Positions 43,588-49,500 are shown, numbered from the stretch's first letter. The stretch: 64,000 bases of DNA from Escherichia coli (GCF_003018235.1 NZ_CP027437.1); one strand, 5' to 3'. Program-made: the numbers.

Positions 43588-46500
43588 CTGGCATTTGATC
43601 GCAACAGCACGCGCAAAGTGCTGATTGAAGCAACGTCAAACCAGGTCAATCAATTTGGCGGTTATACCGGAATGACACCGGCAGACTTTCGCGAATTTGT
43701 TTTTACGATTGCCGATAAAGTTGGGTTTGCACGCGAACGCATTATTCTCGGCGGCGATCATCTGGGGCCAAACTGCTGGCAGCAAGAAAATGCGGATGCG
43801 GCGATGGAAAAATCCGTCGAGCTGGTAAAGGCATATGTTCGTGCTGGCTTCAGTAAAATTCATCTTGATGCGTCAATGTCCTGCGCGGGGGATCCCATAC
43901 CGTTAGCACCAGAAACGGTTGCGGAACGAGCTGCTGTGCTTTGCTTTGCTGCGGAAAGTGTGGCGACAGATTGCCAGCGTGAGCAATTGAGCTATGTCAT
44001 TGGCACCGAAGTTCCGGTTCCGGGCGGTGAGGCCAGCGCCATTCAGTCAGTACACATCACCCATGTTGAAGATGCCGCCAATACTTTACGTACGCATCAA
44101 AAGGCCTTTATTGCCCGTGGGCTGACAGAGGCGTTAACACGCGTGATTGCCATCGTGGTGCAGCCGGGCGTGGAATTTGATCACAGCAATATTATCCATT
44201 ATCAGCCGCAGGAAGCGCAGGCGCTGGCGCAATGGATAGAAAACACCCGAATGGTTTATGAAGCACATTCTACCGATTACCAGACCCGGACGGCTTATCG
44301 GGAATTAGTCCGCGATCACTTTGCAATATTGAAAGTCGGTCCCGCATTAACCTTTGCTTTACGTGAGGCGGTATTTGCGCTGGCACAAATTGAGCAGGAA
44401 CTTATCGCCCCCGAAAATCGCAGCGGTTGCCTGGCGGTAATTGAAGAAGTGATGCTCGACGAACCGCAGTACTGGAAAAAATATTATCGTACGGGTTTTA
44501 ACGATTCATTACTGGATATTCGTTACAGCCTGTCGGATCGTATTCGTTATTACTGGCCGCATAGTCGGATTAAAAATAGCGTTGAAACGATGATGGTGAA
44601 TCTGGAAGGCGTGGACATACCACTGGGCATGATTAGTCAGTATCTTCCTAAACAATTTGAACGCATTCAGTCCGGGGAATTATCAGCAATACCGCATCAG
44701 CTTATTATGGATAAAATTTATGATGTTTTGCGCGCCTATCGCTACGGCTGTGCGGAATAAGGACGGTATATGACTAACCTGTTTGTTCGTAGCGGAATTT
44801 CTTTTGTCGATCGTAGCGAAGTTTTAACCCATATCGGTAATGAGATGCTCGCCAAAGGTGTGGTTCATGATACCTGGCCACAGGCATTAATTGCCAGAGA
44901 AGCAGAATTCCCTACCGGGATAATGCTTGAGCAGCACGCCATTGCAATACCGCATTGTGAGGCGATTCATGCTAAGTCGTCAGCCATTTATCTGTTAAGG
45001 CCAACAAATAAAGTTCATTTTCAGCAAGCGGATGATGATAACGACGTGGCGGTATCGTTGGTTATTGCGTTGATTGTGGAAAATCCGCAGCAGCAATTGA
45101 AACTTTTACGCTGTTTATTTGGCAAGTTACAACAGCCCGACATCGTCGAGACACTAATCACTCTTCCTGAAACCCAGTTAAAGGAATACTTCACAAAGTA
45201 TGTTTTAGATTCAGACGAATAAATCCCTCTGTAATAATAAAAAGGACTATTTATGAAACGCAAGATTATTGTCGCTTGCGGAGGCGCGGTTGCGACCTCT
45301 ACGATGGCGGCGGAAGAAATTAAAGAGTTGTGTCAGAGTCATAATATTCCTGTTGAATTAATCCAGTGTCGGGTTAATGAAATAGAAACCTATATGGATG
45401 GCGTGCATTTGATATGCACCACTGCCAAAGTGGATCGTAGTTTTGGCGATATTCCATTAGTTCACGGCATGCCTTTTGTTTCTGGTGTCGGTATCGAAGC
45501 ATTACAAAATAAAATTCTGACTATCTTACAGGGGTGACCTATGTTTTCAGAAGTCATGCGTTATATTCTCGATCTCGGCCCTACGGTGATGTTGCCGATT
45601 GTCATCATTATTTTTTCTAAAATTTTAGGCATGAAGGCAGGCGATTGCTTTAAAGCGGGTCTGCATATCGGGATTGGCTTTGTTGGCATTGGCCTTGTGA
45701 TTGGCTTAATGCTGGATTCCATTGGCCCGGCGGCGAAAGCGATGGCGGAAAATTTCGACCTGAATCTGCATGTGGTCGATGTCGGCTGGCCGGGCTCTTC
45801 ACCAATGACCTGGGCGTCGCAAATTGCGCTGGTGGCGATTCCGATTGCGATTCTGGTTAACGTGGCGATGTTACTGACCCGTATGACGCGGGTGGTAAAT
45901 GTTGATATCTGGAATATCTGGCATATGACCTTCACCGGCGCGTTGCTGCATCTGGCAACCGGTTCATGGATGATAGGGATGGCGGGTGTGGTAATTCACG
46001 CGGCGTTTGTTTATAAGCTCGGCGACTGGTTTGCCCGCGATACCCGAAATTTCTTTGAACTGGAAGGCATTGCTATTCCGCACGGTACGTCGGCGTATAT
46101 GGGGCCGATTGCGGTGCTGGTCGATGCCATTATCGAGAAAATCCCAGGCGTAAACCGTATTAAATTTAGCGCCGACGATATTCAGCGCAAATTTGGTCCG
46201 TTTGGCGAGCCTGTCACCGTGGGTTTTGTGATGGGGCTGATTATCGGCATCCTCGCGGGTTACGATGTCAAAGGTGTATTGCAGCTGGCGGTAAAAACGG
46301 CGGCGGTGATGCTGCTGATGCCACGGGTGATTAAACCCATCATGGATGGTTTAACGCCCATCGCTAAGCAGGCCCGTAGTCGTTTACAGGCGAAGTTCGG
46401 CGGTCAGGAGTTCCTGATTGGCCTTGATCCGGCGTTGCTGCTGGGGCATACGGCGGTGGTATCGGCAAGCCTGATTTTTATTCCACTCACCATTTTAATT

Positions 46501-49500
46501 GCTGTTTGTGTGCCGGGTAATCAGGTGCTGCCGTTTGGCGATCTTGCCACTATCGGCTTCTTTGTGGCGATGGCGGTCGCGGTGCATCGTGGAAATCTGT
46601 TCCGCACCTTAATCTCGGGTGTCATCATTATGAGCATCACCCTGTGGATCGCGACGCAAACTATTGGTTTGTACACCCAACTGGCGGCTAATGCTGGGGC
46701 GTTAAAAGCCGGAGGTATGGTGGCTTCAATGGATCAGGGCGGTTCTCCCATTACCTGGTTACTGATTCAGGTTTTCTCCCCGTAAAATATTCCCGGTTTC
46801 ATTATTATCGGCGCAATTTATCTAACCGGTATTTTCATGACCTGGCGTAGAGCGCGTGGTTTTATTAAACAAGAGAAAGCCGTTCTCGCAGAATAATTTT
46901 TACCTGAGGGGGAGGTTATCCCCCTTAACAATCAGGAGTTTTTATGAAATCAGTGGTGAATGATACTGATGGTATCGTGCGCGTTGCAGAAAGCGTCATT
47001 CCTGAAATTAAACATCAGGATGAGGTGCGGGTAAAAATTGCCAGCTCGGGCTTATGTGGTTCCGATTTACCCAGGATATTTAAAAATGGTGCACATTATT
47101 ATCCAATAACGTTAGGCCATGAATTTAGCGGCTATATTGATGCGGTGGGATCCGGTGTTGATGATTTACACCCTGGCGATGCGGTTGCCTGTGTGCCGTT
47201 ATTACCCTGTTTTACTTGTCCAGAGTGTCTGAAAGGGTTTTATTCCCAGTGCGCAAAATATGATTTTATTGGCTCACGGCGTGATGGTGGATTTGCCGAA
47301 TATATTGTCGTTAAGCGGAAAAATGTCTTTGCTCTACCCACGGATATGCCTATTGAGGATGGGGCTTTTATTGAACCGATTACCGTTGGCCTGCATGCTT
47401 TTCATTTAGCGCAAGGTTGTGAGAATAAAAACGTTATTATTATTGGTGCCGGAACCATTGGCCTGCTGGCTATTCAGTGCGCTGTCGCGCTGGGAGCAAA
47501 GAGTGTGACGGCGATCGATATTAGCTCAGAAAAACTGGCACTGGCAAAATCTTTCGGTGCGATGCAAACATTTAACAGTAGCGAAATGAGCGCGCCGCAA
47601 ATGCAGGGCGTTTTACGCGAGCTGCGCTTTAATCAGCTTATCCTCGATACGGCTGGCGTACCGCAAACTGTCGAACTGGCGGTAGAGATTGCCGGTCCTC
47701 ATGCCCAACTGGCGCTGGTGGGGACGTTGCATCAGGATCTGCATTTAACATCGGCAACGTTTGGCAAAATATTGCGTAAAGAGCTGACGGTTATCGGCAG
47801 TTGGATGAACTACTCCAGCCCTTGGCCGGGGCAGGAGTGGGAAACGGCGAGCCGGTTGCTGACAGAACGTAAGTTAAGCCTGGAGCCATTAATCGCTCAC
47901 CGTGGAAGCTTTGAATGCTTCGCCCAGGCGGTGCGTGACATCGCTCGTAATGCTATGCCGGGCAAAGTGTTGCTCATTCCCTGAAACCGCGGGCCAGCGT
48001 GATGCTGGCCCGGTATTGTGCAAAACAGATCATTCACCAATGGTCCCCCTTCGTTTACACTAGCCACAATTGAATATGGGTAAATGACGATGAATTCATT
48101 CGAGCGAAGGAATAAGATCATCCAATTAGTGAATGAACAGGGAACCGTGCTTGTTCAGGATCTGGCGGGAGTATTTGCTGCCTCGGAAGCGACAATCCGT
48201 GCCGATTTGCGCTTTCTCGAACAAAAAGGCGTGGTTACGCGCTTTCATGGCGGTGCGGCGAAAATAATGTCCGGTAATAGTGAAACCGAGACCCAGGAAG
48301 TCGGGTTTAAAGAGCGATTTCAGCTCGCCAGCGCGCCAAAAAACAGAATAGCGCAGGCGGCAGTCAGAATGATCCACGAAGGGATGACCGTTATTCTCGA
48401 CAGCGGAAGTACGACAATGCTTATCGCCGAAGGATTAATGACCGCCAAAAATATCACGGTGATTACCAACAGTCTCCCGGCAGCGTTTGCCCTTTCCGAA
48501 AATAAAGATATTACTCTGGTCGTCTGTGGTGGCACCGTCCGCCATAAAACGCGCTCGATGCATGGTTCCATTGCCGAGCGTTCATTGCAGGATATTAATG
48601 CCGATTTAATGTTTGTCGGTGCTGATGGTATTGATGCGGTTAATGGTATTACGACCTTTAATGAAGGTTATTCGATTAGCGGGGCGATGGTCACCGCCGC
48701 TAATAAAGTGATTGCCGTTCTCGATTCATCGAAATTTAACCGTCGCGGTTTTAATCAGGTACTGCCAATCGAAAAAATCGACATTATTGTTACCGATGAT
48801 GCTGTGTCAGAGGTGGATAAACTGGCATTGCAGAAGACACGGGTAAAATTAATTACGGTGTAGTATTGTTCTGTATGCCGGATAAGGTGTTTACACCGCA
48901 TCCGGCATTACGGATTCTCCCTGGTTCAAGAGAGAATAGTTTGATTAACGCAATAATGGACAATCTGGTGGTAATCGACAACGCAACGCCGCCGGAAGTA
49001 TTTCAATATGGAAGTTTTGCCCACTCAACGGTTCGCCATCAAGATTAAAAGTGATTTCGTGTGGGGCTTGTATATCAAACCACGACGAAGCGCCTTCGAT
49101 AATATTCGGGTTATCTTCGTCAGATTTTAAGGTTGATACGAGAGCCGGAAGAATTTCATCGCCGGTAAAAATGCGCAGTTGCAGCAAGCCATCGTTAATT
49201 AACGCGTTCGGGCACAATTGTTGACCGCCACCGGCCTGACGCCCGTTACCAATACCAATGACCAGGGCGTCACCTTGCCAGTGAAAGTTTTCACCGCGGA
49301 TTTCACAACGGTCCGGTTGCAGAGTATCCATGCGCATTAAGCCATGAATGATGTAAGAGACGCCACCCAGCGCGGCTTTTAATTTTTCCGGCGTTTCTGT
49401 GGTAATACGCGTCCCAAATCCGCCTGTCGCCATATTAATAAAACAGGTTTGTTTGTTGACCTGCGCCATATCTATCGCAATGGCGTTACCGACAATTGCC

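Follow-up and report, generated by a model that had tools for sequence, protein, structure and literature searches.

A nonsense codon in gatC and a filamentous prophage between gatY and gatZ suggest that galactitol use is impaired in a clone of Escherichia coli

The window analysed here is a stretch of 64,000 nucleotides from Escherichia coli (GCF_003018235.1 NZ_CP027437.1), given as one strand from 5' to 3' and numbered from its first letter, and it contains the gat operon for galactitol utilisation together with the repressor gene gatR. We found two lesions in this operon: gatC, which encodes the EIIC subunit of the galactitol phosphotransferase system (PTS), is interrupted by an in-frame TAA, and a prophage has been inserted between gatY and gatZ. 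Because two independent lesions strike one operon, the reading with the best support is that of the original prediction, namely that galactitol utilisation is probably inactive or being lost, and we estimate the probability that the strain is galactitol-negative or strongly impaired at roughly 0.8. The features that carry this reading are the following, TM11 being the eleventh transmembrane helix of GatC.

45541-46785, plus strand: truncated gatC, 414 sense codons followed by a premature TAA at 46783-46785 (Q415*).
46786-46896, plus strand: orphaned 3' end of gatC, 36 in-frame codons (TM11 and a basic cytoplasmic tail) with the original TAA at 46894-46896.
31398-43489, minus strand: inovirus-like prophage of 12,092 bp between the gatY stop and the gatZ start, its junctions placed by comparison with empty sites.

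The GatC product would end in a short loop after the fourth re-entrant hairpin, without TM11 and without the positively charged tail, and this loss would destabilise or disable the transporter. The 12.1-kb prophage, integrated in the opposite orientation in the 28-bp spacer between gatY and gatZ, would deprive gatZABCD of transcription from the gatY promoter. As GatR is intact and the inducer would not be taken up, the pathway would be silent, and a second hit on one operon would be the outcome expected from relaxed or negative selection on galactitol use.

Translation of 45541-46785 identified the product as GatC. It passed the TIGR00827 model with 711.5 bits (cutoff 542.2) and contained the Pfam EIIC-GAT domain (PF03611, E = 1.5e-87, residues 8-386), and the gene sits within a gatYZABCD-gatR cluster whose order and near-identity match the annotated E. 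coli locus. The 414 codons, the TAA and the 36 further codons described in the original prediction were read directly in the window, and the full length of 451 codons that it gave equals that of GatC in reference E. coli; the window gene falls short of this 451-residue form with TM11 and the cytoplasmic tail. Alignment with PapRG-06-5, the closest complete genome (99.3% identity), revealed that the Gln415 codon CAA had become TAA by a single C to T substitution, the codon being otherwise unchanged. Among 5,073 gatC-bearing complete RefSeq E. coli records, there was no exact match to the 61-mer centred on this T, and the best records listed were exactly one base off the window. Similarly, an exact 40-mer spanning the stop had no match in the GTDB species representatives.

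A difference of one base from every complete reference genome might also arise from a sequencing or assembly error in one record. However, a Logan assembly of run SRR22548703 (L002), which is identical to window positions 43462-56785 save for one base at 49922, carries the same base, as does the NCBI assembly GCA_012128275.1 (L009), which shows 0-1 differences from the window across about 6 kb on either side, and the identical 414-residue product is present on 13 public contigs. Because the same base occurs in independent assemblies of the clone, the stop is a genuine mutation of one clone and not a read error, the probability of an error being negligible. In the PGAP annotation of the sister assembly L009, no gatC product was called. 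A repaired version of the window allele, 451 residues long, had no match in about 15 billion proteins, and the sense-codon ancestor of this gatC haplotype is so far unsampled.

Suppression or read-through of the stop, for example by an ochre suppressor tRNA encoded elsewhere in the genome, would allow full-length GatC to be made, and we regard this as very improbable. Nothing in the window favours it except that the 36 downstream codons are still in frame and intact, but this is equally explained by a recent mutation, given that the sisters differ by 0-1 single-nucleotide polymorphisms in about 6 kb, and no tRNA gene was found in the window. In E. coli, termination at a TAA with a following A is efficient, and natural isolates rarely carry ochre suppressors. 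Independent translation of the orphaned 36 codons was also considered and rejected, there being no start codon with a ribosome-binding site ahead of Met433.

The second lesion was described in the original prediction as a prophage separating gatY from gatZABCD. Its position between gatY and gatZ stood, with boundaries at 31398 and 43489 by comparison with empty sites, while its nature was refined: it is filamentous, it encodes an IS110-family recombinase, and it is not fixed in the clone. In other strains, the empty site reads TTTAACAAG followed directly by GAAAAAACATG, with 28 bp from the gatY stop to the gatZ start, and the junction can be placed to within the dinucleotide AG (CT on the minus strand). 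All of the long open reading frames (ORFs) of the prophage are on the minus strand, that is, opposite to the gat operon. Their products match a secretin (M13 protein IV; phrog_1012, E = 4.7e-104), TraX, a morphogenesis ATPase (M13 protein I/Zot; phrog_1675, E = 2.8e-46), a minor coat-like protein, a replication initiator (phrog_91, "nicking at origin of replication", E = 6.8e-113) and an IS110-family transposase. An ORF of 117 residues matches "minor head protein" families (E = 3.7e-9), an ORF of 102 residues at 39038-39346 has a hydrophobic core and a weak PHROG match only (E = 4e-4), and a Gly/Thr-rich ORF of 510 residues had no PHROG match. A nucleotide search of the phage collection with the prophage gave no match, and the matches of the replication protein were distant, at most 32% identical, those to the proteins of the Vibrio filamentous phages VFJ and fs2 being 30-32%. 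Judged by these protein matches, the insertion in gat is an inovirus-like filamentous prophage and not a tailed phage.

With regard to transcription across the insertion, one feature at the gatY-proximal end of the prophage is relevant.

31976-32014, both strands: terminator-like hairpin with a T-rich tail on both strands, from a consensus scan and direct reading of the sequence.

This hairpin lies about 600 bp inside the prophage and would be the first obstacle for transcripts leaving gatY. At the other end, the consensus scan found no promoter-like site on the plus strand facing gatZ in 43274-43497. The phage end leaves ...CTAGGAAAAAACATG, and gatZ retains a Shine-Dalgarno-like AGGA. The arrangement suggests that gatZABCD are probably cut off from the gatY promoter.

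Look-up of the exact GatY protein gave sister and other loci, which fell into three kinds of place. First, phage-bearing sisters have the phage after gatY (L005 and 11 similar places; L010 and 3 others). Second, scar-type sisters (L009 and 2 others) have no phage and 63 extra bases between gatY and gatZ. Third, the unrelated lineages L006-L008 have a virgin site and the CAA codon. The 63 bases of the scar (L009 6876-6938) are identical to window positions 43427-43489, the outermost part of the phage end, where the following repeat lies.

43432-43491, no strand: tandem duplication of the phage end, 28 bp.

The duplication and 7 more bases make up the scar that is kept in the phage-free sisters. 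Among the isolates examined, the gatC TAA is common to the phage-bearing L002 and the scar-type L009, and the phage has been lost from part of the clone. We rejected the possibility that the scar represents the state before integration, as insertion into a 63-bp scar would give three 28-bp units and the window has two; instead, it is what a deletion left behind. The endpoints of this deletion have TGCT in common and are placed at CT dinucleotides, and the event was either aberrant excision by the recombinase or microhomology-mediated deletion at TGCT. Because the copy number and the site of the phage vary within and between genomes, recent mobility of the phage is suggested.

The consequence of the premature stop for the transporter was considered in the light of known structures. 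The window protein aligns across residues 1-445 to a GatC homologue of solved structure, the GatC of Leminorella grimontii (LgGatC; PDB 9u82 and related entries). This protein, 81% identical to E. coli GatC according to its authors, has 11 transmembrane helices and four re-entrant hairpins; TM1-10 form an inverted repeat, TM11 is a non-repeated final C-terminal helix, the C-terminus is cytoplasmic, and the last of the substrate-cavity residues is D399 on HP4 (bioRxiv 10.1101/2025.04.02.646771). In UlaA, a transporter of ascorbate, the moving core domain consists of TM11 packed together with the two transporter cores (PMC6048161). Both proteins are of the same family and fold as the window GatC, whereas the window allele ends just short of TM11. 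In an AlphaFold model of the repaired window protein (predicted local distance difference test, pLDDT, 90.7; predicted template-modelling score, pTM, 0.90), codon 415 falls within the four-residue loop that separates helices 403-412 and 417-450. Only TM11 (GFIIIGAIYLTGIFMTW) and the basic tail (RRARGFIKQEK...) are lost from the truncated product. We consider it probable that the TAA alone causes loss of function, and damage from the loss of TM11 is expected chiefly because TM11 of UlaA belongs to the moving core domain. It is not certain, however, that the TAA alone is a null allele.

Several observations weigh against the inactivation of galactitol use. First, the truncated GatC keeps both inverted repeats and all four hairpins; its residues 9-413 span the TIGR00827 model end to end (positions 1-407 of 407), and the Pfam EIIC-GAT domain, reaching residues 8-386 only, stops short of the stop codon. 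Second, an HMMER search of 1.84 billion cluster representatives yielded 115 full-length homologues among the best 150, and 41 of these 115 end within 16 residues (mostly 1-6) of the Pro414 column and have no TM11. Third, weak promoter-like sites at 44680 and 45210 could permit some expression of gatA-D, and the promoter and terminator scans are consensus matches in which promoters were not enriched over shuffled sequences. Fourth, the prophage is missing in some sisters, so the split of the operon is not fixed in the clone.

Because 41 of the 115 representatives end near Pro414, a version without TM11 is viable in the EIIC-GAT family, and the alignment suggests that the nonsense codon would turn the long-form GatC into the outline of the short form. 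It is therefore conceivable, though unlikely, that GatC(1-414) folds without TM11 and still carries galactitol, in which case the Gat phenotype would be set by the prophage alone and the scar-type sisters would be Gat-positive. The coverage of the whole TIGR00827 model with a score above the curated cutoff, the coincidence of the stop with the end of the 41 short representatives, the location of the stop in a modelled loop and not within a helix, and the position of all of the LgGatC substrate-cavity residues upstream of the stop are consistent with an active product. However, the short forms (about 417-426 residues), which like the truncated product end at the equivalent of E. coli GatC residues 413-417, evolved without TM11 and are just 29-39% identical to E. 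coli GatC, while the closer relatives examined, P0018 (58% identity) and LgGatC, keep TM11. In addition, loss of TM11 probably exposes a packing surface in a protein that evolved with this helix, by analogy with UlaA, and the basic tail WRRARG, a positive-inside topology signal, is gone. In the literature, we found no structure or assay of a long-form GatC without TM11. Impairment of galactitol use by the two lesions together thus remains our preferred reading.

Apart from this comparison, the EIIC-GAT family has two natural architectures, one ending after the fourth hairpin and the other with TM11 (115 full-length 50%-cluster representatives; P0016-P0165), a hydrophobic TM11-like segment being present in 70 of the 115. 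The curated models TIGR00827 and PF03611 both stop ahead of TM11.

The other gat genes were compared with an intact reference locus, and the gene order, gatY-gatZ-gatA-gatB-gatC-gatD-gatR, is canonical.

30523-31377, plus strand: gatY, 284 residues, intact with few substitutions, attached to the gat promoter region (alternative ORF start 30517).
43498-44760, plus strand: gatZ, 420 residues, intact with few substitutions, now 12.1 kb from gatY.
44770-45222, plus strand: gatA, 150 residues, protein identical to the reference.
45253-45537, plus strand: gatB, 94 residues, protein identical to the reference.
46944-47984, plus strand: gatD, 346 residues, intact with few substitutions.
48090-48863, plus strand: gatR, repressor, 257 residues, intact and without an insertion sequence (IS) element (alternative ORF start 48084).

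The repressor gene had been described as apparently intact, and this holds: GatR agrees with the reference at 257 of 259 residues with two conservative substitutions, and the gene is free of the IS element that gatR carries in K-12. Upstream of gatY, the sequence is conserved and departs from that of other strains by only a few single-nucleotide polymorphisms. Candidates for further private damage were examined and rejected. In GatC, H378Y and V447A are shared polymorphisms or lie at variable positions, the same is true of W268R in GatZ, and three substitutions in GatY also occur in unrelated lineages with intact operons. Q415* is the sole private lesion in the gat coding sequences.

Loss of gat function has been demonstrated repeatedly in E. 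coli. It is recurrent and often selected, with loss and regain in the gut, and natural isolates are polymorphic for gat function; in K-12 evolving in the mouse gut, the ability to use galactitol is abolished by lesions in gatC (a frequent target), gatZ, gatA or gatY, some of them point mutations and others insertions of mobile elements, and the founder allele is a +C at nucleotide 222 of 1356 (PMC3945185, PMC5094792, PMC5850726). The window clone resembles these mutants in that its gat lesions arose by point mutation and by a mobile element. However, the operon of MG1655 is constitutive, whereas the window clone is natural and regulated, with gatR intact; the founder lesion is an early frameshift, whereas the nonsense codon of the window falls 36 codons before the end; and the mobile element of the mouse-gut mutants is an IS inside a gene, whereas here it is a filamentous phage between two genes. 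A paper on GatC in glucose adaptation reported no gatC truncations. A double hit, of which one part can be reversed, is compatible with relaxed or negative selection on the locus, and the window genotype is most likely of the ordinary natural galactitol-negative kind with a new gatC allele.

The prophage itself was also analysed with respect to how its site may be chosen, and two features at its gatZ-proximal end are relevant.

42320-43273, minus strand: IS110-family RNA-guided transposase gene, 317 residues (NF033542, phrog_2199), the presumed phage integrase.
43274-43433, minus strand: bridge-RNA-like non-coding left end, upstream of the recombinase gene.

The recombinase scored 208.6 bits against NCBIfam NF033542 (cutoff 140). 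An exact look-up of its protein gave no record, either because the product is unrecorded or because the query was one residue short. In its orientation, the junctions read CATGTTTTTTC-CT-AGTGTG...phage...ATAGTTG-CT-TGTTAAATGG, and the same CT core is found at both junctions and in the empty target wherever these are readable (the window, L003, L004 and L011-L016). The junction of a circular phage would be predicted to read ...CATAGTTG-CT-AGTGTGTTTG... Within the non-coding end, a guide-like segment, ATTTTTCC (43392-43399), equals the left half of the target and the first core base, and a second, TTAACAAG (43368-43375), equals the complement of the core and the right half of the target. According to the predicted fold, a small hairpin within a long stem separates these two 8-mers, which share one internal loop, at a z-score of -1.38 only. 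On the donor side, CACACTAG (43286-43293, minus strand) is exactly complementary to the left end over its first 8 bases, and direct reading found no clean match for the half at the right end. An Rfam scan of the phage end detected no bridge-RNA family, the only hits being REP-like naRNA4 matches and a spurious Thr-leader match on the terminator hairpin.

Related phages at other sites were found in 8 of 5,426 complete genomes, at the following places.

csgC/ymdA: L003 and L014.
Inside an outer-membrane protein gene: L004.
yhbO/yraR: L011.
bioH/gntX: L012 and L013.
srlB/srlD: L015.
Upstream of yfcG: L016.

Guides and targets were compared over seven distinct sites, and the guide-like segments vary between the related phages and do so together with the insertion site. 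At positions 2-8, the second guide agrees with its own target in each of the six sites for which that flank is known, in five different sequences, and the first matches its own target at 5-7 of positions 2-8. The constant part of the target, on the strand of the downstream gene, is the Shine-Dalgarno-like AAG/GA, and the insertions mostly lie a few bases ahead of a start codon. These sequence comparisons raise the possibility, which we advance tentatively and at slightly less than even odds, that the integration site of the filamentous phage is programmed by a bridge RNA whose guides spell the gatY/gatZ junction.

Bridge RNAs have been described for IS621, with left and right target guides and a typical CT core (PMC11208160). 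The window phage shares with that element the recombinase family, the CT core and an upstream non-coding stretch with two target-guide-like segments. However, IS621 is a minimal insertion sequence that targets REP elements, whereas here a whole filamentous phage genome of 11 kb would be inserted at Shine-Dalgarno-like sites ahead of start codons, under the guidance of a putative RNA. IS110-type integrases are also found in filamentous phages of Neisseria (PMC7058167). The Nf/MDA prophages of that genus are likewise inoviruses with an IS110-family transposase in place of XerCD or of a tyrosine or serine integrase, but they belong to another host and another phage lineage, and in the window phage and its relatives the target shifts from phage to phage along with the guide-like segments. 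A literature search found nothing linking bridge RNAs with filamentous phages.

Further observations were made on these phages. In L015 (E. coli CUPS TF 6/1_01, about 3610-15171), the phage splits the sorbitol PTS operon at srlB/srlD, just before the srlD start. The outer phage end is tandemly duplicated in E-93 as well as in the window, over 69 bp (L003, reverse complement, about 2933-3075) against 28 bp (43432-43491), and the inner junction in E-93 lies within the first-guide DNA, as would result from integration of a second copy into the guide of the first. A TraX-like gene of the F-pilin acetylase family (34930-35727, minus strand), an unusual passenger for an inovirus, is kept in all of the related prophage copies. 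Between the secretin gene and traX, a GC-rich array at 33404-34680 repeats a 340-bp unit 3.8 times in tandem (88% matches) and has overlapping ORFs on both strands. A small ORF at 31635-31976 (plus strand) has a signal-like N-terminus and a 27-bp coding repeat, and it is 113 residues long in the window, 95 in L005 (7113-7400) and 104 in L010 (7113-7427). Because these lengths differ among assemblies of one clone, the number of repeats is unstable.

Elsewhere in the window, positions 1-24000 (the yeh/metG side) reach at best 96.5% identity to any complete RefSeq E. coli genome and 90-95% to most, while the gat and mdt/bae parts are 98.6-99.3% identical; the former is either a divergent or recombined segment or a sign of a lineage poorly represented among complete genomes. 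A ParE toxin/ParD antitoxin pair lies at about 52369-52918 (L002 8908-9457), between yegQ and a DUF1508 gene.

If bridge-RNA programming is true and undescribed, the phage would exemplify, in nature, the use of an RNA-guided recombinase of the IS110 type as a phage integrase that can be re-targeted and that carries 11 kb of cargo, and it would follow that retargeting of such phages can knock out hexitol operons (gat, srl). The phage guides could matter more than gatC, both for natural RNA-guided integration of large cargo and for the disruption of operons by such phages. For annotation, gatC should carry a pseudogene flag, and the prophage now has exact boundaries. Caution is needed in that short family members naturally end where the truncated product does, so that the call of a null allele needs a test; Q415* is at the same time a natural test of whether TM11 is dispensable in a long-form GatC. 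For the organism, the finding predicts a dulcitol/galactitol-negative phenotype for one E. coli clone, which is of small consequence, and it adds one more natural allele at a locus that is already known to alternate in the gut between function and loss of function.

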